Positions 3,960-56,278 of a stretch of 64,000 nt of DNA are shown here, piece after piece (position 1 is the first letter of the stretch; every line of letters starts with the position of its first letter). The notes below the pieces were generated by a model, which saw only the letters and a list, made by a program, of their open reading frames with translations, had not been told where the DNA came from and did not search any database. Where the stretch lies: positions 341,087 through 405,086 of the forward strand of contig CAWAQA010000004.1 in assembly GCA_963784065.1 (NCBI GenBank). Reading direction: 5' to 3'. Source of the DNA: an uncultured Acidobacteriota bacterium. Its GTDB lineage: Bacteria; Acidobacteriota; Vicinamibacteria; Vicinamibacterales; UBA2999. Both the position numbers and the translations under genes were made by a program.

Positions 3960-5069
3960 CTACAGGGGCCTGACCCCAAGGATCCCCGCCAGAAGCAGGA
4001 CCGTGGCCAATGCCCCGGCCACCTGCCACGCCAGCTGCGTGCGCTTGCGGAGCGTGAGCGTGCCGAGGCACAGGACCAGGGCGGCGGCCATCAGCGCCCG
4101 GCGATACAGCTCCTCGAAGGTCGCGACTTCTTGTGTGAGGTCCGATCGCCGGGTCACCCGATCGAGAATCCTGAACGCCACAACCCGGTCGGGCTCGGTG
4201 CCGACCTCGAAATACTCGCCTCCGCCCGCTGCGGCGATCCGCGCGAGCGACGGCCGGTCGAGCGCCGAGCGGACGAGCGGCGGCGGACGTGTGCCGTCGG
4301 CGCGCGCCGGCTCCGGGATCATTCCGCCGCTGGTCGTGCCGATGCCCACCACGAAGACGGGGATATTGCGCACGCGCGCGGCCTCGAGCGCCGTCGCCAC
4401 GGTACCGCTCCACGCCTGGCCGTCGGAGATCACGACGAACGCCTTGGGATTGCCGCTGGCGCCGAACAGCTGTTCGTCCTGCTCCACGATCCGGAGTCCC
4501 CAGCGGATCCCTTCCTCGATGTTCGTATCCCACGTCGGCACGCTTTCGAGCGGGAAGGGCGAACGATCGCCGAGGTGATCGAGGAAGAAGAAGAGCGCGT
4601 TGGGATCGGTCGTGAGCCGTACCTGAGGCGCCGCGAGCTGCGCGAACAGGGCGAGCGCCACCCGGTCGCCCTGCCAGCTCAGTGCCTCCGCGAACGTGCG
4701 AAGGAACTGGATCGATCGCCGCCAGCGGTCGGGACGGACATCGGCGACATACATCGACGCCGAGCCATCCTGAAGGATGACGATGTCCGTGTTCGCTTTC
4801 CGCAACGCCGACACGCGCGCCTGCGGCCGCGCGAGCGCCGCGATGCCGAGGCTGGCCGCGACGATCACCGACAACCAGAAGGCGAGGTCGCCTGCGACCG
4901 CATAGCGTTCGCGAACCGGCACGATGCGACGCGCCACGAGGCGGCGGACGTCGGCGCGCCGGCGGAGGAGACGCCAGCCGAGGAGCAGCAGCAACGCTGC
5001 CGGAACCGTCAGCAGCCACAGCCAGACAGGCTCGGCGAAGCGGAAGGTGTCCAATTCGACTCGCGGCAC
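3960..5069 (-). CDS. VWA domain-containing membrane protein (BatA/BatB-like)
   Basis: Two N-terminal TM helices (VWLWLLTVPAALLLLLGW; LAFWLSVIVAASLGIAALA). MIDAS-type start DIVILQDGSASM. FVVISDGQAW and VFVVGIGT. A C-terminal TM helix. Last gene of the MoxR/DUF58 operon. Confidence 0.8.
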   Translation of the reverse strand: MPRVELDTFRFAEPVWLWLLTVPAALLLLLGWRLLRRRADVRRLVARRIVPVRERYAVAGDLAFWLSVIVAASLGIAALARPQARVSALRKANTDIVILQDGSASMYVADVRPDRWRRSIQFLRTFAEALSWQGDRVALALFAQLAAPQVRLTTDPNALFFFLDHLGDRSPFPLESVPTWDTNIEEGIRWGLRIVEQDEQLFGASGNPKAFVVISDGQAWSGTVATALEAARVRNIPVFVVGIGTTSGGMIPEPARADGTRPPPLVRSALDRPSLARIAAAGGGEYFEVGTEPDRVVAFRILDRVTRRSDLTQEVATFEELYRRALMAAALVLCLGTLTLRKRTQLAWQVAGALATVLLLAGILGVRPL

Positions 5070-9052: not shown

Positions 9053-10107
9053 GGCACCGGCACCCTGTCTATGACGTCGTCAATGACCATGTCTACCGTC
9101 ACACCGTGGCTCGCCGCGTGCGGCCCGAGCCAGACGCGGTGGCTGAGCACGTACTTCGCCAGGTCCTGCACGTCCTCCGGATACACTTCCGAGCGGCCAC
9201 CCAGCAGCAGCGCCCACACCTTCACCAGCCGGCCCCAGCAGATCGTGGCGCGCGGCGACGCGCCGAGGTCCACGCACTGTTCGACCAGCGCCGCCGGCGA
9301 TCGATGATGCCATGCGCTCTCGGCGTTGTACGGACGCGTGGCGCCGACCAGCCGCCGGATGTACTTCGCGAGCGCCCCGTGCAGGAACACCTCGCGCGTG
9401 ATGGCGCCGCGCAGCTCGATGATCCGTTCCTTGCGCACGAGCGGGTTGAGGTGCACGCGCTTGAAGTCGAAGCTGACCAGCTTCTCCTCCTCCGCCGGCG
9501 TCAGGTAAGGGATGTTGAGCATGATCGCGAACCGGTCGGTCGCCGCCTCGGACAGGGGAAACGTGCCCTGCCCGAGCTCCACCGGGTTCATCGTGGCGAT
9601 CGCGAAACTGAACGGCTGCAGCTCGTAGGTCGTCTTGCCCACGGTGATGGTGCGGTCCTGCAGCCCCTCGAGGAACGCACTCTGGGACTTCAGCGGGATG
9701 CGGTTGATTTCGTCGAGCAGGATGATTTCGCCCGAGGCAAGCGGACCGAACTCCGTCACGAGCTCCCCGGTCGCCGGATTGATCATCTGGAAGCCGACGA
9801 TCTCGGTCGGCTGCAGGTCCGCCCGGCCCTGCAGGCGTGCGAACTTCGCGTTGCTGATGGCGGCGAGGATGACGCCGAAGAACGTCTTCCCCACGCCCGG
9901 AACCCCGCGCAGCAGCAGGTTCCCGGCGTTGACCTGGCGGTTCTGGTTCTTGTCGTAGGTCGTCGGAATCTCCGAGAGCAGGACCACGTTGGCGAGCGCC
10001 TTCTCGGTCTCGTAGCCAACCAGCGCGTTGCTGGCTTCAGCAAGGATTTGTCTGTGCAGATCGATCGCTTCCTGAAGCTCCGGATGCATGGAGCCCGAAT
10101 CATACAA
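9049..10107 (-). CDS. MoxR-family AAA+ ATPase
   Basis: Intact 352-aa ORF. Walker A LLRGVPGVGKTF. Walker B IILLDEINR. It also carries FSFAIATMNPVELGQGTFPLSEAATDRF, which is typical of MoxR. Confidence 0.9.
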   Translation of the reverse strand: MYDSGSMHPELQEAIDLHRQILAEASNALVGYETEKALANVVLLSEIPTTYDKNQNRQVNAGNLLLRGVPGVGKTFFGVILAAISNAKFARLQGRADLQPTEIVGFQMINPATGELVTEFGPLASGEIILLDEINRIPLKSQSAFLEGLQDRTITVGKTTYELQPFSFAIATMNPVELGQGTFPLSEAATDRFAIMLNIPYLTPAEEEKLVSFDFKRVHLNPLVRKERIIELRGAITREVFLHGALAKYIRRLVGATRPYNAESAWHHRSPAALVEQCVDLGASPRATICWGRLVKVWALLLGGRSEVYPEDVQDLAKYVLSHRVWLGPHAASHGVTVDMVIDDVIDRVPVP

Positions 10108-11427: not shown

Positions 11428-11453
11428 AGTATAATAGCGCGTCCTTACGGCCT

Positions 11454-11502
11454 CCTGAGCCTTGTTCCTGAGCCCTGATGCCTGATCCCCGGGCCCTTTG
11501 AT
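11454..11502 (+). repeat. degenerate heptanucleotide array (CTGAGCC-type), 7 units, running into the guaA start
   Basis: Reads cctgagc cttgttc ctgagcc ctgatgc ctgatcc ccgggcc ctttgat when cut every 7 nt. Confidence 0.7.
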
Positions 11503-13051
11503 TGTGGCGCATCAAACCATACTCGTCCTGGATTTCGGCTCGCAGTACACCCAGTTGATTGCCCGGCGTCTGCGCGAGCTGTCGGTCTACTCCGAAATCG
11601 TTCCGTTCAACACACCGCTCAGCGCCCTCCGGGCGAAGAACGCGGTCGGCATCATCCTGTCAGGCGGACCGAAGAGCGTTTCCGAAGCCGGCGCGCCCCG
11701 CTGCGACACGGGCCTGTTCGAGCTCGGCGTGCCCGTCCTCGGCATCTGCTACGGCATGCAGCTGATGACCGACGTGTTGGGCGGTGAGGTCCGGCGGTCG
11801 GGTCACCGGGAGTTCGGCCACGCCCTCGTAAAGGTCAGCCGCAACGGCGACGCGCCGCAGCTGTTTCGCGAGATCCCCGCCGAGCTCCGCGTGTGGGCGA
11901 GCCACGGCGACGACGTGGCGGCCGTGCCGCCTGGATTCGCCGTCGCCGCCACCAGTGCCACGGCGCCGATCGCCGCGATGGAAGCGCCCGACCGCTCGCT
12001 CTACGCGCTGCTGTTCCACCCCGAAGTGGCACACACCGATCATGGCCTCGAGATCCTGAAGAACTTCGCGTTCCACGTGTGCGGTTGCACGGGAGACTGG
12101 ACGATTGCCTCGTTCATCGAAGAAGCCACCGAAGGGATCCGGGCACGGGTGGGCAGCGGCAGGGCCGTGTGCGGGCTGTCGGGCGGAGTGGACTCCACCG
12201 TCGCGGCCATGCTCATTCACCGTGCGATTGGCGATCGTCTGACCTGCATCTTCGTGGACAACGGGCTGCTGCGTCACGAGGAAGCCAGCCAGATCAGGAA
12301 GCGATTCGCGGGGAAGCTGCACCTGCCGCTCGACTTCGTGGACGCCAGCCACCTCTTTCTCGAGCGGCTGGCGGGTGTCACCGATCCCGAGCAGAAGCGG
12401 AAGATCATCGGCGCGACGTTCATCGACGTCTTCGAGACGCGCGCGAAGGAGCTGGGCGGGTTCGACTTCCTCGGGCAGGGCACCCTCTATCCCGATGTGA
12501 TCGAATCGGCCGGCGTCCACGGCCCGGCCGTCGTCATCAAGAGTCATCACAACGTCGGCGGGCTGCCGGAGCGGATGAATTTCAGGCTGGTGGAGCCGCT
12601 GCGCGATCTCTTCAAGGACGAAGTGCGGCGCGTCGGGCGCGACCTCGGGCTCGACAAGGAGTTCGTGGTGCGGCAGCCTTTCCCTGGCCCCGGGCTCGCC
12701 GTGCGGATCCTCGGCGAGCTCACGAAGGAGCGCCTCGAGCTGTTGCGGCTGGCGGACAGGATCGTGGCGGAGGAGATCCGCAAGGCAGGGTGGTACGAGC
12801 GGCTCTGGCAGAGCTTCGCGGTGCTGCTGCCGGTCCAGAGCGTGGGCGTGATGGGCGACGCGCGGACCTACGAGTACACGGCCGCGATCCGGGCGGTGGA
12901 GAGCCTCGACGGCATGACGGCCGACTGGGCGCGCCTGCCGCACGAGCTGCTGGCCACCATGTCGTCGCGCATCGTCAATGAGGTGCGCGGGATTAACCGC
13001 GTGGTGTACGACATCTCGTCGAAGCCGCCGTCGACGATCGAGTGGGAATAG
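11498..13051 (+). CDS. guaA: glutamine-hydrolysing GMP synthase
   Basis: Intact 517-aa ORF. GATase part [17 protein letters not shown] and GICYGMQ. ATP-PPase motif [11 protein letters not shown]-terminal end KPPSTIEWE. The start is TTG 11498 or GTG 11504. Confidence 0.95.
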
Positions 13052-13054
13052 CAA

Positions 13055-13217
13055 TCATTGTTGATTGATGATCTGTGATTGATGATTCTGTGTTGAACGC
13101 GGATTGTCGAATGTTGATTGATATGCGGCGGAGCACGCCATTGCCACTCTCAGACAATCAGCAATCGAGAATCGCCAATCAACAACCAATCATCAATCAT
13201 CAGTCGGCAATCAGGAA
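13055..13217 (+). repeat. inverted pair of heptanucleotide arrays: about 10 units of TGATTGA-type, a 30-nt GC-rich core, then about 9 units of TCAATCA-type ending at the dnaE ATG
   Basis: Left array 13055-13124: tcattgt tgattga tgatctg tgattga tgattct gtgttga acgcgga ttgtcga atgttga ttgatat. Right array 13155-13217: caatcag caatcga gaatcgc caatcaa caaccaa tcatcaa tcatcag tcggcaa tcaggaa. The right word is the reverse complement of the left word. Confidence 0.8.
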
Positions 13218-16200
13218 TGTCTGAGTTCGTCCACCTCCACCTCCACACCGAGTTCTCGCTCCTCGACGGCGCCTGCCGGATCGACGAACTGCTCGACGAG
13301 GCGGTGAAGCTGAAGATGCCGGCGCTCGCGGTGACCGAGCATGGCAACATGTTCTCGTCGGTCGTGTTCCACGATCATGCGCGCGCGCGCGGACTCAAGC
13401 CGATCCTGGGGTGCGAGGTCTACGTCGCGCCAGGCGACCGGTTCGACAAGAGCGGGCCGCAGACCGAGACCAATCACCTCGTGCTGCTCGCGGAGACCGA
13501 CGAAGGCTACAAGAACCTGATCAAGCTGGTGTCCGCCGGCTACACCGAGGGGTTCTACTACCGGCCGCGGATCGACAAGGCGCTGCTCGAGCGGCATGCG
13601 AAGGGCCTCATCGGCCTGAGCAGCTGCCTCAAGGGTGAGGTCGCCAGCGCGCTCAGGATCGAGCAGGCGCGCCCGGCGCTCGAGGCGGCGGCACGGCTGC
13701 GGGACATCCTCGGCCAGGACAACTTCTTTCTCGAGATGCAGTATCAGGGCATCGAGGAGCAGCGGATCGTCAACAAGGGCCTGCTGCCGATCGCCAGTGA
13801 CCTCAACCTGCCGATCGTCGCGACCAACGACGTGCACTATCTGCGGCAGGGCGACCACCAGCCGCACGACATCCTGCTCTGCATCGGCACCGGCAAGACG
13901 GTCAACGACGCCCAGCGCCTCCGCTACACCGGCGACCAGTTTTTCCTCAAGACCGCCGCGCAGATGGCGGAGGTGTTCAAGGACCACCTCGACGCGCTGA
14001 AGAACACACTGGTCGTCGCCGAGCGCTGCAACGTCACGATCCCGACGGGGGCGAACCACCTGCCGTCCTTTGGCGTGCCCGAGGGCTATACGCTCGATCA
14101 GTACTTCGAGCACGTGGTGCGTGAAGGGTTCACCCAGCGGCTGACGCGCCTCCGGCAACTCGCCGCGACGGGCCACCTCCGCCACAGCGTCGACGAGTAC
14201 GAGCGTCGTCTCGAGTACGAGATCGAGATGATCAAGAAGATGGGGTACGTCGGGTACTTCCTCATCGTCTGGGACTTCATCCGCTACGCGCGCGAAGAAG
14301 GCATCCCCGTGGGCCCGGGCCGCGGCTCGGCGGCCGGGTCGCTGGTGGCGTGGTGCATGCGCATCACGGACGTGGATCCGATTGACTTCGGCCTCATCTT
14401 CGAGCGCTTTCTCAACCCCGAGCGCGTGTCGCTGCCCGACATCGATGTCGATTTCTGCGAACGCCGCCGCGGCGAGGTGATCGACTACGTCACGCGGAAA
14501 TACGGCCGCGAGAACGTCGCCCAGATCATCACGTTCGGCACGATGAAGGCGAAGGCGGTGGTGCGTGACGTCGGTCGCGCCCTCGACATGCCCTACGCCG
14601 ACGTCAACAACATCGCGAAGCAGATCCCGCCCGCGCTCGACATGACGCTGGACAAGGCGCTGGCGGAGAATCCGATCCTCAAGGACATGGCGGCGAAGGA
14701 CCCCCGGGTCAAGGAGGTGCTCGACATCGGGCGCCGTCTCGAAGGGATGTCACGCCACGCGTCGGTACACGCGGCCGGCGTGGTCATCGCGCCCGGACCG
14801 ATCACCGACTACGCGCCGCTCTACAAGGGGCAGCGCGACGAAATCACGACGCAGTGGAACATGAAGGAGGTGGAGCGCGTCGGCCTCCTGAAGATGGACT
14901 TCCTGGGGCTGAGCACGCTCACGCTCATCCAGGACTGTCTCGCCGAGATCAAGCGCACCGAGGGCGTCGAGCTCGACATCGACACGGTGCCGCTCGACGA
15001 TCCGAAGACCTACAAGGTGTTCGGCGACGGAGCGGCCTATGGCATCTTCCAGTTCGAGAGCTCCGGCATGCGCGAGCTGCTGCGGAAGGCGAAGCCGGAG
15101 CGGCTCGACGACCTGATCGCGCTCAACGCCCTGTACCGGCCGGGACCGCTCAAGTCGGGCATGGTGGACGACTTCATCGCGCGCAAGCAGGGCCTCAAGG
15201 AGATCAAGTACGAGCTCCCGCAGCTCGAGCCGATCCTGTCCGACACCTACGGGGTCATCGCGTATCAGGAGCAGGTCATGCGCATCGCGCAGTCGCTGGC
15301 CGGCTTCAGCCTCGGGCAGGCGGACGTGCTGCGCAAGGCCATGGGCAAGAAGGATCCCAAGGTCATGGCCATGCAGCGCGAGGCGTTCATGGCGGGCGCC
15401 AGGACGCTCAACGTCAACGAGAAGAAGGCGACCAAGATTTTCGACCTGATGGAGTACTTCGCCGGCTACGGCTTCAACAAGTCGCATTCCACGGCGTATG
15501 CCTTCCTCGCGTACCAGACCGCCTACCTCAAGGCGAACTATCCATGGCACTTCGCGGCGGCGCTGCTGACCATCGAGGCGCAGAACACGGACAAGCTGGC
15601 GATGTACCTGGCCGAATGCCGGGACCGCGGCATTCCGGTGCTGGCGCCCGATGTCAACGAGAGCCAGCTCAATTTCTCGGTGGAGCCCGGGCGCGGGGTG
15701 CGCTTCGGGCTGACGGCGATCAAGGGCCTCGGCGAAGGGGCGATCCGGTCGATTCTCGACGCCCGAACGCGGCTTGGCGGGCGCATCGCGTCGCTGCACG
15801 CGCTCTGCGAGATTCTCGACATGCGCCTGGCGAACAAGCGCGTGTTCGAAGCGCTCGTGAAGGCCGGCGCCTGCGATTCGCTGGCGCACGGCGCGGCCGA
15901 CATCGCCGCGCTGATGTCGACGCGGGCGCGGCTGTTCGCCGCGATCGAAGGCGCGTGCGAGCAGGGGGCCCGCACGCAGCGCGACAAGGAGCTGGGTCAG
16001 ACGGATCTGTTCGGCGGGAGCGACGAGCATGCGCCAGCCTCGGTCCAGCTGCCCGGCGTCCCGGCCTGGACCGAGGTCGAGCTGCTCAACTACGAACGCG
16101 ACACGCTCGGCCTGTTCCTCACCGGCCACCCGATCGATCGATGGGCCGATGATCTTCGCGAGTACGGCGCCAGGTCGATCGCCGACCTCGGCCTCAAGAA

Positions 16201-16789
16201 GGAGCCCGAGGCGGCCGCCGACGCGCCGGCCGATGAGGAGGCTGCAGCGGCCGGGTTCGCCCGGCCCGAAGCCGGTAACGGCCGCGTTGCCGACGACATC
16301 AGCATCGGCGGGATCGTCTCCGGCCTGCGGCCGCTGAAGACACGCAAGGGCGATCGCATGTGCGTCTTCATGCTCGACGACAAGGACGGTGGCCTCGAGG
16401 TCATCGTCTTTCCGGAGGCGTTCAAGCAGTACGGCCACCTCGGCGAGAACGGCAACGTCGTTGTCGTCAAGGGAAAGTTCGAGAAGGACGAGGAGTCGGC
16501 GCGCCTCATCGCGTCCGAGATCATGCCGATCGAGCTCGTGCGCGAAAAGCTGGCGAAGTCAGTGGCAATCCGGTTGACGACGCCGCCGCACGACCGCGCG
16601 ACGTTCGAGCGGCTCTGGGACCTGTTCGCGCAGCACAAGGGCGACCGCCGCGTGGCGTTCGTCATCGAGGAACGCGATCGGAAGGTCCGCGTCACGGCCG
16701 ACGTGAGCGGGATTCGCGTGCGTCCCTCGGAACGGCTCGTCTCGGAGGTCGAAAAAATCTGTGGTGCCGGTTCGGTGAGCCTGAGATGA
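13217..16789 (+). CDS. dnaE: DNA polymerase III subunit alpha
   Basis: The PHP N-terminus MSEFVHLHLHTEFSLLDGA starts at ATG 13217. The 33 upstream codons of ORF 13118 merely translate the heptad array. The sequence is conserved throughout (GRGSAAGSLVAWC, PDIDVDF, YGIFQFES, LYRPGP, FNKSHS). No frame break in 3.6 kb. Confidence 0.95.
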   Translation: MSEFVHLHLHTEFSLLDGACRIDELLDEAVKLKMPALAVTEHGNMFSSVVFHDHARARGLKPILGCEVYVAPGDRFDKSGPQTETNHLVLLAETDEGYKNLIKLVSAGYTEGFYYRPRIDKALLERHAKGLIGLSSCLKGEVASALRIEQARPALEAAARLRDILGQDNFFLEMQYQGIEEQRIVNKGLLPIASDLNLPIVATNDVHYLRQGDHQPHDILLCIGTGKTVNDAQRLRYTGDQFFLKTAAQMAEVFKDHLDALKNTLVVAERCNVTIPTGANHLPSFGVPEGYTLDQYFEHVVREGFTQRLTRLRQLAATGHLRHSVDEYERRLEYEIEMIKKMGYVGYFLIVWDFIRYAREEGIPVGPGRGSAAGSLVAWCMRITDVDPIDFGLIFERFLNPERVSLPDIDVDFCERRRGEVIDYVTRKYGRENVAQIITFGTMKAKAVVRDVGRALDMPYADVNNIAKQIPPALDMTLDKALAENPILKDMAAKDPRVKEVLDIGRRLEGMSRHASVHAAGVVIAPGPITDYAPLYKGQRDEITTQWNMKEVERVGLLKMDFLGLSTLTLIQDCLAEIKRTEGVELDIDTVPLDDPKTYKVFGDGAAYGIFQFESSGMRELLRKAKPERLDDLIALNALYRPGPLKSGMVDDFIARKQGLKEIKYELPQLEPILSDTYGVIAYQEQVMRIAQSLAGFSLGQADVLRKAMGKKDPKVMAMQREAFMAGARTLNVNEKKATKIFDLMEYFAGYGFNKSHSTAYAFLAYQTAYLKANYPWHFAAALLTIEAQNTDKLAMYLAECRDRGIPVLAPDVNESQLNFSVEPGRGVRFGLTAIKGLGEGAIRSILDARTRLGGRIASLHALCEILDMRLANKRVFEALVKAGACDSLAHGAADIAALMSTRARLFAAIEGACEQGARTQRDKELGQTDLFGGSDEHAPASVQLPGVPAWTEVELLNYERDTLGLFLTGHPIDRWADDLREYGARSIADLGLKKEPEAAADAPADEEAAAAGFARPEAGNGRVADDISIGGIVSGLRPLKTRKGDRMCVFMLDDKDGGLEVIVFPEAFKQYGHLGENGNVVVVKGKFEKDEESARLIASEIMPIELVREKLAKSVAIRLTTPPHDRATFERLWDLFAQHKGDRRVAFVIEERDRKVRVTADVSGIRVRPSERLVSEVEKICGAGSVSLR

Positions 16790-16797
16790 CCGGCTTC

Positions 16798-16909
16798 AAC
16801 TCCGATATGTTCCGGCGCCGACATCCAGCTTCCAGAGAGGTGGCGCCGGGACGGGAGTTGGAGCACGCATCAGATTGGAGTTGGGCGTTGAGTGTGACCT
16901 ACCCTGTCC
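16798..16909 (+). repeat. dnaE-accA spacer: imperfect hairpin (caactcc..ccggcgcc / ggcgccgg..ggagttg) plus heptad words running into the accA ATG
   Basis: ccggcgcc (16812-16819) pairs with ggcgccgg (16842-16849). caactcc (16798-16804) pairs with ggagttg (16854-16860). Cut every 7 nt back from ATG 16910, the sequence reads ggagttg gagcacg catcaga ttggagt tgggcgt tgagtgt gacctac cctgtcc. Confidence 0.55.
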
Positions 16910-17875
16910 ATGCCTGCTGACACACTGGAATTCGAAGAGCCGGTAGCGGTCCTGCTGAAGGAGATCGAGGCGCTCTCGATGCTCCCGCAGACACCCGAGC
17001 GCCAGCGATCGATTGAGAGCCTGCGTCGCCGCGTCGAGGAGGTCCGGGCGGATATCTACTCACGGTTGACGCCGTGGCAGCGCGTTCTGGTGGCACGGCA
17101 CAGCAACCGGCCGACGGTGCTGGACTACGTGAACCGCCTGTTCACGGAGTTCACCGAGCTCAGCGGGGACCGCCGGTTCGCGGACGACCACGCGATCGTC
17201 ACCGGGTTCGCGCGATACAAGGACGAGCCCGTGCTGGTGGTGGGCCACCACAAGGGGAGCGGCGGGGACACGAAGGATCGCGTCTACCGGAACTTCGGCT
17301 ACGCGAAGCCGGAAGGCTACCGGAAGGCGTTGCGCGCGATGAAGCTGGCGGAAAAGTTCCAGCGGCCGGTGATCGCGTTCATCGACACGCCGGCGGCGTA
17401 CCCGGGGGTGGAGTCGGAGGAGCGCGGGATCTCGGAAGCCATCGCGCTCAATCTGCGCGAGATGGCGGCGCTCGATACGCCGATCATCGTGCTGGTCCAC
17501 GGCGAGGGCGGCAGCGGCGGCGCGCTCGGCATCGCGGTGGGGGACCGGATCCTGATGCACGAGTTCGCGATCTACAGCGTGATTCCGCCGGAAGGCTGCG
17601 CGGCGATCCTGTGGCGCGACTCGAACCGGAAGGTCGAGGCGGCCGACGCGTTGAAGCTGACGGCGCCCGACCTGCTCGGGTTCGGTGTCATCGACGAGAT
17701 CGTGCGGGAGCCGACAGGCGGGGCACACACCGACCATGAGCTCGCGGCGTCGCTGCTCGATTCCGCGCTCGAACGGTCCCTCAATGCCGTGTCGGCGATG
17801 GATTCGCAAACCCGGCTCGATGCGCGCTACGACAAGTTCCGCGCCATGGGCAACGTCGGAATAACCGAAGCATGA
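16910..17875 (+). CDS. accA: acetyl-CoA carboxylase carboxyltransferase subunit alpha
   Basis: Intact 321-aa ORF with the typical AccA sequence: RPTVLDYV, FIDTPAAYPGVESEERG, VHGEGGSGGALGIAVGD, YSVIPPEGCAAILWRD. Confidence 0.95.
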   Translation: MPADTLEFEEPVAVLLKEIEALSMLPQTPERQRSIESLRRRVEEVRADIYSRLTPWQRVLVARHSNRPTVLDYVNRLFTEFTELSGDRRFADDHAIVTGFARYKDEPVLVVGHHKGSGGDTKDRVYRNFGYAKPEGYRKALRAMKLAEKFQRPVIAFIDTPAAYPGVESEERGISEAIALNLREMAALDTPIIVLVHGEGGSGGALGIAVGDRILMHEFAIYSVIPPEGCAAILWRDSNRKVEAADALKLTAPDLLGFGVIDEIVREPTGGAHTDHELAASLLDSALERSLNAVSAMDSQTRLDARYDKFRAMGNVGITEA

Positions 17876-25246: not shown

Positions 25247-25324
25247 ATGCAAGTGCGAAATGCACGATGACAAACCGGACGTTTGGCATTCGGCATGGGG
25301 CATTTGGCATTGAGCATTGACATG
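25247..25324 (+). repeat. inverted heptanucleotide arrays: ATGCNNN-type (4 units) then NNGGCAT-type (6 units), ending on the hprK ATG
   Basis: Left array 25247-25274: atgcaag tgcgaaa tgcacga tgacaaa. Right array 25283-25324: ttggcat tcggcat ggggcat ttggcat tgagcat tgacatg. Confidence 0.75.
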
Positions 25325-55266: not shown

Positions 55267-55328
55267 TGGGCAGTGGGCACGACCCACGCGAGGCGCTGCC
55301 AACTGCTGACTGCGGAGTGCCGACTACT
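55266..55328. repeat. convergent-gene spacer made of 9 heptad words (GTGGGCA-type then NACTGCN-type)
   Basis: Reads gtgggca gtgggca cgaccca cgcgagg cgctgcc aactgct gactgcg gagtgcc gactact. The spacer lies exactly between the two stop codons (55264-55266 and 55328-55330). Confidence 0.7.
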
Positions 55329-56278
55329 TACGGGACCGTGAACGGGGAACCGCCGCGGCCGCGGCCGCCTGGCAATTGGAGCGGTGATGCGCCGCTGCCC
55401 TGCGGCAATCCGCGTCCGCCGCCACCCAGGCCAGGCGTCGGCAGACCTCTCCCTCGTCCTTCCATGCCTGGCAACTGCGTGCCCCGTCCGCCCGGCGTCG
55501 CCGTGCCGGGGACGCCGCCGCCCGCCTGCTGGTTGGCTTCGGTCGCGACGAACGCCCACTCGTTGTATTTGTTGCGGCCGTTGAAGAGGCGCAGTGAGGT
55601 CTGCTCGCTCTTGCTGACGACACCCAGGACAGGTCCCGTTGTCCCCCCGGTACCTGGGCGCGTCACGCGATTGAAGCCAGACGCGGCCGGGCCCGTTCCG
55701 CCGCCGGCGCCCAATCCGAGGGTCGCGCCCGTGCCACGCCCACCGGTCGGATCCGTGCCCTGGCCGGTGCCAAGTCCCGTCCCGCGGCCTGCGCCGGCCC
55801 CCAATCCCCCGCCGCTCCCCAATCCCCCGCCGCTCCCCAATCCTCCGCCGCCCCCCAATCCTGCTCCTGCCCCTAACCCCGCGCCGCCCCCTAACCCTGC
55901 TCCTGCTCCGCGGCCGGGGACCACCGGCGCAGTCATCTGGCCTGGCACTGGCGTGCCGACCGAGATGATCTGGAACTCGCCGTCCGCCGTCATCGGGTCC
56001 TTGTACTTTTTCCGGAGGAACTTCTCGTTGACGAGGACGTCAACGCTCGGCGGGAACGCGCCGCGACTGCGCTGGTAGAGCGCGACGGCGCGCGAGTACT
56101 GCAGTCCGCGGAATACGAGCTCTTCTTCGCGCTCGCGCCGGGCGAGCGTCCCCCACGCGGGCAGCAGCATGCTGAGCGCGATGGACATCACGCTCAGCAT
56201 GATGAGCAGCGCAGCCATCGCGAAGCCGCGCTCGCTACTAGAGAACGATCGTCGTGGTGCCGGTTCCCGTGCGCCCAT
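55328..56278 (-). CDS. Gly-rich pseudopilin-like protein with a hydrophobic N-terminal helix (last gene of the pilus/T2SS-like operon)
   Basis: Intact 316-aa ORF. ...SSERGFAMAALLIMLSVMSIALSMLLPAW resembles a prepilin leader plus helix, but has Ala where the conserved Glu5 would be. Then LVFRGLQYSRAVALYQ and FLRKKYKDPMT, and long GLGxGG and GGRG tracts. The start at 56278 overlaps the upstream gene by 41 nt. Confidence 0.55.
   Translation of the reverse strand: MGAREPAPRRSFSSSERGFAMAALLIMLSVMSIALSMLLPAWGTLARREREEELVFRGLQYSRAVALYQRSRGAFPPSVDVLVNEKFLRKKYKDPMTADGEFQIISVGTPVPGQMTAPVVPGRGAGAGLGGGAGLGAGAGLGGGGGLGSGGGLGSGGGLGAGAGRGTGLGTGQGTDPTGGRGTGATLGLGAGGGTGPAASGFNRVTRPGTGGTTGPVLGVVSKSEQTSLRLFNGRNKYNEWAFVATEANQQAGGGVPGTATPGGRGTQLPGMEGRGRGLPTPGLGGGGRGLPQGSGASPLQLPGGRGRGGSPFTVP
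55799..55906 (-). repeat. 18-nt tandem repeat, 6 units, encoding (G-A/G-G-L-G-x) hexapeptides
   Basis: Plus-strand units: ccccaatcccccgccgct (twice), ccccaatcctccgccgcc, ccccaatcctgctcctgc, ccctaaccccgcgccgcc, ccctaaccctgctcctgc. Confidence 0.85.

Follow-up and report, generated by a model that had tools for sequence, protein, structure and literature searches.

An inverted heptamer-array hairpin between guaA and dnaE in an uncultured Vicinamibacterales bacterium, a possible relative of rRNA intervening sequences

Organization of the guaA-dnaE junction

The guaA and dnaE genes of an uncultured Acidobacteriota bacterium (assembly GCA_963784065.1, contig CAWAQA010000004.1, positions 341,087 to 405,086) are separated by a spacer built of two inverted arrays of degenerate heptanucleotides. 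The whole stretch analysed, 64,000 nucleotides (nt) long, is called the window here. The guaA gene encodes GMP synthase (11498..13051, + strand; Pfam GMP_synt_C, 4.6e-45, and GATase, 1.5e-42) and ends with the stop codon TAG 13049-13051. The dnaE gene encodes DNA polymerase III alpha (13217..16789, + strand; Pfam PHP, DNA_pol3_alpha, finger, HHH_6 and OB domains) and starts at ATG 13217; accA and recJ lie downstream of it. The N-terminus MSEFVHLH is conserved among DnaE orthologues, and the C-terminal motif ...IEWE* of GuaA is kept across 143 orthologous loci.

The spacer (13052-13216, + strand, 165 nt) has a GC content of 0.44, compared with 0.68 for the whole window, and is divided into two arms and a core, all given on the + strand. 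The left arm (13055..13124) is separated from the guaA stop codon by 3 nt, is G+T-rich and consists of about ten degenerate TGATTGA-type heptamers (lag-7 identity 0.54, z 3.5). The right arm (13151..13216) is A+C-rich, consists of about nine degenerate TCAATCA-type heptamers (lag-7 identity 0.64, z 5.0) and ends on the dnaE start codon. Between them lies a non-repetitive, more GC-rich core (13125..13150; ~26-34 nt, ~59% GC), which forms the hairpin tip and the apical loop of the minimum free energy structure.

AGGA at 13213-13216 had been taken for a Shine-Dalgarno-like sequence in the initial annotation. It directly touches the dnaE ATG with zero spacing and is too close to be a canonical Shine-Dalgarno site. 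Neither a sigma-70-like promoter nor an intrinsic terminator was found by consensus on the + strand of the spacer. A scan of the spacer against Rfam 15 at a permissive E-value gave no family; the best match, snoZ163, scored 19.1 bits against a gathering threshold of 39 (E 0.21), which is chance level. The right-arm side of the spacer (13118-13216) is free of stop codons in the dnaE frame (TTG 13118, ATG 13124), and a gene caller could prepend 31-33 spurious residues (MRRSTPLPLSDNQQSRIANQQPIINHQSAIRN) to DnaE. We rejected a coding extension from the in-frame ATG 13124, because its GC content at third codon positions is ~0.58 (hand count) vs 0.90 in the gene, it has no Pfam match and it is missing in orthologues.

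Periodicity, arm complementarity and predicted fold

Autocorrelation of the spacer is highest at lag 7, with an identity of 0.49 compared with 0.25 ± 0.04 in dinucleotide shuffles (z 6.5), and lags 14 and 21 are likewise raised. When the whole window was cut into 1,827 tiles of 70 nt, the two arms ranked first and third by lag-7 identity. Tandem Repeats Finder (TRF), run on the window, reported period 7/14 arrays at 13057-13096, and a 14-nt block is repeated 2.5 times at 90% identity in the left arm. The units are degenerate: they match the consensus TGATTGA or TCAATCA at a mean of 4.4 of 7 positions in the left arm (10 units) and 4.7 of 7 in the right arm (9 units), compared with 2.8 and 2.6 in shuffled arms (p < 0.001), and only three units across both arms are exact.

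The arms are complementary to each other. Over 65 nt, positions 13056-13120 and 13155-13219 pair at 72%, and 34 nt separate the two segments. TGATTGATGATT occurs without mismatch at 13076-13087, and 13188-13199 is its exact reverse complement. Folding of the RNA 13040-13230 predicted one long imperfect hairpin of -71.9 kcal/mol, compared with -53.5 ± 4.3 for shuffles (z -4.25; none of 200 shuffles was as good). In this structure the dnaE AUG (13217-13219) pairs with 13056-13059 at the base of the hairpin. These results confirm the positions, the flanking genes and the anatomy given in the initial annotation, namely an AT-rich spacer of about ten and nine inverted degenerate heptamers around a GC-rich core of about 30 nt, arms aligning at 70-75% and a long imperfect hairpin.

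Variation of the spacer among orthologous loci

We compared 143 loci with guaA-dnaE synteny, individual loci being denoted by L numbers. Among species-representative genomes, every DnaE relative belongs to a metagenome-assembled genome (MAG) of Vicinamibacterales (Acidobacteriota), the closest being 86% identical. Metagenome contigs give DnaE identities of up to 88%, GuaA reaches at most 92% and AccA is nowhere matched exactly; the searched collections contained no same-species relative in which micro-variation could be followed.

The length of the orthologous spacer ranges from 0 to 448 nt. It is 0 nt or an overlap in 24 of the 143 loci, at most 10 nt in 53, at least 40 nt in 66 and at least 100 nt in 47. 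Among the 66 spacers of at least 40 nt, autocorrelation peaks at lag 7 in 34 and at lag 8 in 20 (54/66 together). The fold has z < -3 in 39 of these 66 and in 36 of the 47 spacers of at least 100 nt. The hairpins share neither core nor unit: the cores are unrelated, GC-rich and 30-50 nt long, and the units fall into several types. The TGATTG/CAATCA type occurs in the window, L006, L009, L018, L039, L083, L089, L099, L161 and others, the GTTC/GAAC type in L002, L007, L008, L021, L026, L040, L091, L092, L109, L121 and L124, and the GGTCC/GGACC type in L043 and L063. Further units are TGCGATT/AATCACA, GGTTGGT and GGCACCA, and octamers including CACAGAGA/CTCCGTG and TGAGGAT. In one MAG (L013, 2813-2912) a run of N interrupts a guaA-dnaE heptamer array of GGTCGGT type.

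Clustering by the DnaE N-terminus showed that neighbours differ in the presence, length and unit of the array. For example, the spacer is 186 nt in L083 and 0 nt in L086, and L009 has a TGATT-type array where L092 has a GTTCG-type one. The close relatives L001 and L086 both have 0-nt spacers. In the nearest relative, L161 (GuaA 92% identical), a 77-nt spacer forms a (NNNGATT)4/(AATCNNN)5 hairpin without a core (-41.4 kcal/mol, z -5.3), and in the next, L162, the spacer is 249 nt long with octamer stems. Therefore, the spacer is not a conserved dnaE leader. Its presence is patchy and its unit and length vary among the 143 orthologues, and it is not a conserved regulator of dnaE.

The TGATT-type arrays nevertheless stay in register across species whose DnaE is ~83-88% identical to that of the window. 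An in-register alignment of eight TGATT-type spacers has 41 consensus pairs, and in 9 of these both sides have changed. Higher-order blocks of 14 and 21/22 nt are present in L002, L044 and L008, which indicates recent block duplications.

Across 37 hairpin spacers, the base of the stem is closed at the stop and start codons; the median unpaired remainder is -15 nt, that is, pairing enters the flanking coding ends. An automated census of hairpins was too noisy because flanks always pair. That the array touches the codons on both sides, stop and start, follows for the most part trivially from expansion within an ancestral spacer of 0-15 nt; contact with the ATG is trivial in this sense because the left arm touches the stop codon likewise.

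Heptamer arrays as a lineage-wide class

To place the spacer among other repeats, we surveyed ~1.03 Mb of Vicinamibacterales DNA, made up of the window and 80 loci. Among TRF arrays of at least 3.5 copies, 36 have period 7, 14 period 6, 5 period 8 and 3 period 5. Windows with lag-k identity of at least 0.65 number 39 at lag 7, 5 at lag 8, 2 at lag 11 and none at lags 5, 10 and 13. All 47 strong period-7 regions are non-coding, lying between genes or inside the 5' stop-to-stop extension of a gene, and none lies deep in coding sequence. The arrays occur in co-directional, convergent (L027, L029, L032) and divergent (L027, L006/L009) spacers, and inverted pairs account for ~22 of 37 array-bearing spacers as judged by eye. 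In a divergent promoter region (L006 665-765, L009 690-775), two direct arrays, TGATTG-type and then GGGAGTT-type, adjoin on one strand.

Conservation over the seven positions of the unit is only mildly uneven (variance 0.0285 vs 0.0221 expected), and the unevenness is significant by itself in 6 of 60 arrays. A core-versus-linker constraint within units was considered and not retained, the weak overall excess being all that was seen. One array, L029 3072-3108, is (GTCTTTG)5, the heptamer reported to be preferred by CspB (Morgan et al. 2007).

The window itself holds at least five arrays, and the unit differs between them (TGATTGA, CCTGAKC, AACTCC, TTTGGCA and TGGGCAG). Four exact TGATTGA words elsewhere in the window are isolated chance matches inside or near genes. 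The TGATTGA array is unique in these 64 kb and the other four arrays have other units; the GTTC/GAAC family is found at multiple loci in relatives.

A dispersed family of hairpins with shared termini

The GTTC/GAAC hairpins have common terminal inverted repeats of ~40 nt (…GGTTCGTGTTCA / TGAACACGAAC…GAGAAGCGTGAAC) and are found at 15 or more sites in different spacers. The consensus of the left terminus is …CGTTCACnCTTC…GGTTCTC…CTCGGTTCGTGTTCA and that of the right terminus is TGAACACGAACyGAGAA…GAGAAGCGTGAACG. These termini are present in the guaA-dnaE spacers of L002, L007, L026, L091, L092 and L124 and in unrelated spacers of L021, L026, L032, L033, L048 and L057. Hairpin sites include L002 5757-5990, L021 10689-10930, L026 5827-5995 and 10909-11100, L032 12551-12850, L033 6923-7260 and L057 10650-10800. 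The elements are 56-280 nt long without a gene and 550-725 nt long with one. Because the same termini are shared by non-orthologous sites, the GTTC/GAAC hairpins form a dispersed, MITE-like family (MITE, miniature inverted-repeat transposable element) and differ in this from anonymous SSRs (simple sequence repeats). Where such a hairpin lies between guaA and dnaE, its right terminus …GCGTGAAC runs into the start of dnaE, GTG AAC GAG.

PF05635 genes between heptamer arms

PF05635 is the family of the "23S rRNA intervening-sequence protein" (23S_rRNA_IVP or S23p), an Avd-like four-helix bundle. We searched the six-frame open reading frames (ORFs) of the window and all loci with a hidden Markov model (HMM) built from 240 PF05635 proteins. 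Every PF05635 hit lay inside inverted heptamer arms, at six Vicinamibacterales loci. At the guaA-dnaE junction, the 448-nt spacer of L063 contains a frameshifted PF05635 gene (4483-4943, E 1.2e-10) between GGTCC/GGACC arms. The left arm of L043, a gene-less orthologue of this spacer, is 91% identical to it over 43 nt. We considered a PF05635 remnant in the L043 core and found it unconvincing (a 10-nt match only, E 0.06).

Downstream of recJ, L013 has a full PF05635 gene on the + strand between GTTC/GAAC arms (9384-9999), and the whole element folds with its arms paired (z -3.1). L041 has a PF05635 gene on the - strand (12256-12990) in the same spacer and with the same arm orientation. The opposite strand of the gene between the same arms implies inversion of the loop. 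In L048, a 66-aa C-terminal remnant of PF05635 lies inside a 279-nt element (12512-12850). Other genomic sites with PF05635 are L163 (1272-2052) and L164-173 (L164, 1363-2067).

In public databases, the annotated length of PF05635 proteins of this group is 142-230 aa, compared with ~125 aa for the domain. The annotated excess of 20-100 aa consists of C-terminal tails with a 7-aa or 5-aa period (…PEPGTENPEPGTEN…EPEHEPGSENPEG*), which are translations of the right arm (public proteins P0122-P0240). Thus, the overlong tails are likely a gene-calling artefact caused by read-through of stop-free right arms.

The same arrangement is found in Xanthomonadales, at the accB-accC junction. XCC0516, the S23p protein of X. 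campestris that was crystallised (PDB 2GSC), is encoded between accB and accC. The order is accB-TGA, GGGAATC GGGAGTG GAGAATC GGGAATC, the PF05635 gene, CCCATTC CCCATTC TCGACTC CCTATTC CC and the accC ATG, and the flanking units are the heptamers described by Rehm (PMC4692102). PF05635 genes lie at this junction in Xanthomonas (L174 921-1375, L176 921-1373), Rhodanobacter (L178 684-1139) and Lysobacter (L179 684-1140), all within the set L174-179. In Rhodanobacter, GGGATTC arrays form the left side and four AATCCCG units the right side; in Lysobacter, GGGAATN and GATTCCC arrays flank the gene. The right arm extends up to the accC ATG in Xanthomonas and Rhodanobacter and stops ~12 nt short of it in Lysobacter. 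The unit changes among the three genera and the arms remain complementary. The whole Rhodanobacter element (L178) folds with its arms paired (z -3.2).

Comparison with known repeats and intervening sequences

According to Mrazek 2007, as summarised in PMC4679880 and PMC4692102, heptanucleotides are the most abundant long simple sequence repeats (SSRs) in most genomes, and the richest include GC-rich Burkholderia, Actinobacteria and Xanthomonas. In X. campestris, Rehm 2015 (PMC4692102) described 186 arrays of GGGAATC type, of which 89% are intergenic and near the upstream stop codon, and 70 cases of two closely spaced inverted arrays. These arrays vary between species and are transcribed, no function was identified, they are generally not associated with mobile elements, and the text of that paper does not mention the PF05635 gene. 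MacGregor 2015 (PMC4679880) reported that TAACTGA arrays precede start codons by a few nt in Beggiatoaceae, with S1, Csp (cold-shock protein) or CsrA as suggested binders. The initial annotation was not aware of heptamer arrays in GC-rich genomes of this type, nor of inverted arrays abutting start codons. Its claim of novelty fails, since heptamer repeats of GC-rich genomes (Burkholderia, Actinobacteria, Xanthomonas), inverted pairs in Xanthomonas and arrays close to start codons in Beggiatoaceae had been published before (PMC4692102, PMC4679880). Our literature search found no published account of heptamer repeats in Acidobacteria or Vicinamibacter and no published generalisation of the link between PF05635 and heptamer arms.

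The spacer is close to the heptameric long SSRs known as short tandemly repeated repetitive (STRR) sequences in cyanobacteria (Mazel 1990) and as GGGAATC and GGGGA(C/T)T arrays in Xanthomonas and Nostoc. These too consist of tandem degenerate 7-nt units located almost exclusively between genes, frequently occur as close inverted pairs, often start right after the upstream stop codon, vary among relatives and are found in a GC-rich genome. The head-to-tail units beyond chance, the non-coding site and the variation of length and sequence at the same locus are all STRR-type characters. In contrast to these repeats, however, no single unit dominates here: there are at least five in 64 kb and many in the orthologous spacer. 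The present arrays also have no G-tracts, hence no quadruplex potential, exist in octamer variants, form hairpins of up to 430 nt that span whole operon junctions and belong to the phylum Acidobacteriota. The link with PF05635 is undescribed in the STRR, Xanthomonas and Nostoc papers.

The second relative is the intervening sequence (IVS) of 23S rRNA in Leptospira, Coxiella and Brucella (PMC4990558). In Coxiella, the terminal stem of the IVS is cut by RNase III, the S23p ORF lies in the loop, and 2-3 tandem GACAGAT heptamers are present in strain-variable number, with the 5' cut at the first repeat; excision by RNase III was shown for Coxiella, Salmonella and Leptospira (PMC4990558). The shared features are terminal inverted repeats by whose stem an insertion within an essential, transcribed region is looped out, variable tandem heptamers (Coxiella), the same gene family in the loop of sister elements, and ORF decay, which is seen as reductive evolution in Coxiella and as the frameshifted gene of L063 and the remnant of L048 here. 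The differences are the site, helix 25 or 45 of 23S rRNA there and an mRNA operon junction here, and the structure, a 28-bp stem with an S23p ORF there and long array stems with no ORF in the window copy. Because it is sited between two protein-coding genes, the spacer is IVS-like and not a strict IVS.

Other systems are more distant. The Beggiatoaceae TAACTGA repeats (PMC4679880) are alike in standing a few nt from start codons, in leaders without a canonical Shine-Dalgarno sequence and upstream of essential genes. They are short direct arrays (2-6 copies) of a fixed unit with one inverted case in 170, whereas the present units are degenerate and variable and mostly form inverted pairs. Repetitive extragenic palindromic (REP) sequences, bacterial interspersed mosaic elements (BIMEs), REP doublets forming hairpins (REPINs) and MITEs of proteobacteria are palindromic, intergenic, transcribed, located inside operons and patchy among relatives. 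However, REP, BIME and REPIN elements have a conserved palindromic unit of 20-40 nt, present in hundreds of copies and associated with a RAYT transposase; no such unit recurs in the window, and the arms here are internally periodic. The GTTC/GAAC family resembles a MITE and its parent in that it has terminal inverted repeats and occurs both with and without a gene.

Interpretation of the spacer as an IVS-like element

We interpret the spacer as a cargo-less, IVS-like member of a class of inverted heptamer-array (sometimes 8-nt) hairpins that colonise spacers, especially tight operon junctions, across Vicinamibacterales. In our judgment this reading has an even chance of being correct. In full-length relatives the loop contains a PF05635 gene, which is the architecture of a 23S rRNA IVS. 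For the TGATT-type copy, the IVS-like link is drawn by analogy only, and this copy may have descended from a gene-carrying element.

The element would be transcribed as part of a guaA-dnaE mRNA. The arms would then zip into an imperfect stem of ~65 positions per arm and loop out the 165 nt, which would set the guaA stop codon beside the dnaE start codon, as in genomes where these codons overlap. We propose that tight junctions can tolerate the hairpins since looping-out of the insertion by the arms brings the stop and start codons back together. By likeness to rRNA IVS, the stem is a plausible substrate of RNase III and is probably processed by it. Cutting, or unwinding by a ribosome terminating on guaA, could free the dnaE start and thereby couple the two genes. 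Slippage or block duplication would change the array length while the arms are kept complementary. The elements may insert into, or expand within, transcribed spacers, and the PF05635 gene would often be lost. Hairpins between cistrons are processed by RNase III in the early mRNA of phage T7, and in genes 25 and 38 of phage T4 a hairpin brings a distant Shine-Dalgarno site next to the start codon. These phage hairpins are a functional analogy only; they are short, sequence-conserved and experimentally defined.

A broader version, which we advance tentatively and hold to be less probable than the reading above, is that inverted heptamer hairpins in general, including the window copy and the Xanthomonas pairs, are stems of widespread, hitherto unrecognised IVS-type selfish elements. 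Such elements would reside in mRNA junctions as well as in rRNA, would carry PF05635 genes or descend from carriers, and would be neutralised by looping-out and RNase III.

Several observations weigh against an IVS-like origin of the window copy. No PF05635 gene or remnant was found in the window (by HMM; the ORF 13124-13216 has no Pfam match) or in any TGATT-type hairpin. There is no second TGATTGA-type array in the 64-kb window, and no direct repeat that could be a target-site duplication is visible flanking 13052 and 13216; the spacer thus lacks two characters of a MITE. The TGATT-type module AATCAACAACGAATCA has no dispersed copies outside orthologous guaA-dnaE spacers; vertical inheritance is a sufficient explanation for it, and mobility need not be invoked. 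These elements are not accompanied by a transposase, and we know of no mobility mechanism for IVS. Finally, PF05635 genes might simply insert into the loops of pre-existing hairpins.

Alternative explanations

The most serious rival is that the spacer is a local SSR. A heptamer from the native junction sequence would have expanded by slippage, and the second arm would have arisen, and been kept, by intrastrand template switching (quasi-palindrome correction); the array would be neutral and unrelated to PF05635 elements. This is a serious rival because the window copy lacks any trace of a gene and its module occurs in orthologous spacers only. It also agrees with the preference for heptamers among long SSRs of many bacteria, for which polymerase slippage has been proposed as the cause (Mrazek 2007 cited in PMC4679880, PMC4692102). 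The variation of spacer length between 0 and 448 nt, the differences between neighbours in the tree, the 14- and 21/22-nt blocks in L002, L044 and L008 together with the 14-nt block in the left arm of the window, and the only mildly uneven conservation of unit positions point in the same direction. However, slippage alone gives no inverted pairs, and yet most long arrays are inverted. The GTTC/GAAC arrays keep the order of their units over ~40 nt at scattered sites, which argues for dispersal of whole elements; all sampled PF05635 genes lie between such arms, in two phyla; and TGATT-type arrays persist in register across species. We consider a purely local origin somewhat unlikely.

The initial annotation proposed that the hairpin could sequester the dnaE ribosome-binding site. 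As a dedicated riboregulator, it would do so until a signal such as temperature, a protein or upstream translation opens it, and would tune polymerase synthesis. The structural part of this proposal stands. The predicted ensemble gives a probability of being unpaired of ~0.01-0.03 for the dnaE AUG and the preceding 20 nt, and in silico deletion of the left arm raises the mean for -20..+12 from 0.29 to 0.54. The start codon is also paired in 25 of 37 orthologous hairpin spacers, and the 5' arm is the G+T-rich one in 16 of 17 biased guaA-dnaE pairs. The comparison among genomes speaks against dedicated control of dnaE. The element is missing in about half of the orthologues, including the close relatives L001 and L086 (53 of the 143 spacers are at most 10 nt long), neighbours differ and neither units nor lengths are conserved. 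The same class occurs between convergent genes and at other junctions. The bias in arm orientation fails elsewhere: a general rule of "G+T-rich arm first" was rejected, since outside this junction the count is 4 cases vs 2, and in the dnaE-accA family the 5' arm is the A+C-rich one. Nor is AGGA, in contact with the ATG, a spaced Shine-Dalgarno site, and Rfam contains no matching family. A riboregulator of dnaE is thus improbable.

Least probable is a protein-binding array with a 7-nt footprint, on which cold-shock (CSD/OB-fold) proteins would coat single-stranded RNA, or a PF05635 pentamer would bind, in competition with the hairpin: CspB does bind one protein per heptamer and Csp was proposed for the TAACTGA arrays (PMC4679880), and the period is constant while the sequence varies, with a slight core-plus-variable structure of the unit, but octamer arrays occur too, and units that differ within one genome (five in the window) argue against a sequence-specific binder.

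Significance of the arrays

The single locus is ordinary for its lineage. The finding adds Acidobacteriota (Vicinamibacterales) to the groups with heptameric intergenic repeats, and the comparative set is more useful than the locus, as it provides 143 junctions with presence and absence, many units and graded lengths. Long insertions in this tight junction of essential genes are nearly always self-complementary. The association of PF05635 with inverted arms is the part worth a further look. If it is general, it would offer heptamer repeats, a puzzle since 1990 and 2007, a testable origin and a mechanism at the RNA level, and would give a handle on a large protein family. If the selfish-element reading of IVS type is true, it would tie together heptameric long SSRs, rRNA IVS and the role of PF05635 proteins outside diversity-generating retroelements, which may act on hairpins. 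For annotation, gene callers extend PF05635 proteins, and sometimes their neighbours, through stop-free arrays, and assemblies break or are masked inside arrays.

Other arrays in the window

The remaining four arrays of the window lie at other genes. In the guaA leader, CCTGAKC units (CCTGAGC CTTGTTC CTGAGCC CTGATGC CTGATCC …) occupy 11446-11497, just upstream of the likely guaA start GTG 11507. A lone TATAAT (11432-11437) stands upstream of this array; a consensus scan gave no full promoter. The dnaE-accA spacer contains a decayed inverted array (CAACTCC … GGAGTTGG, CAACTCC/GGAGTTG; 16795-16893) with the A+C-rich arm first and a fold z of -3.46. It is followed (window 16894-16912) by a leader without a Shine-Dalgarno sequence, GTGACCTmCCCTGTCC-ATG, which is conserved at the accA start in many genomes. 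Related dnaE-accA sites are L162 15440-15620 and those of L002, L007, L023, L038 and L048 near 9600-9730.

A direct-only array (TTTGGCA TTCGGCA TGGGGCA TTTGGCA TTGAGCA TTGAC; 25281-25312) abuts the ATG 25313 of hprK (HPr kinase), and a gene for a ribosome hibernation factor (S30AE) lies upstream of it; no significant hairpin was predicted for 25281-25312 (z -1.75). The last array is a short inverted pair, TGGGCAG TGGGCAC … CTGCCAA CTGCTGA CTGCGGA GTGCCGA (TGGGCAG/CTGCCNA; 55267-55330, fold z -1.9), between convergent genes, a beta-lactamase-family gene on the + strand and an unassigned ORF on the - strand. A - strand ORF at 55328-56278 has no Pfam match and contains an 18-nt and 54-nt repeat (CGCCGCCCCCCAATCCCC) at 55761-55900; it probably encodes a Gly-rich repeat protein.

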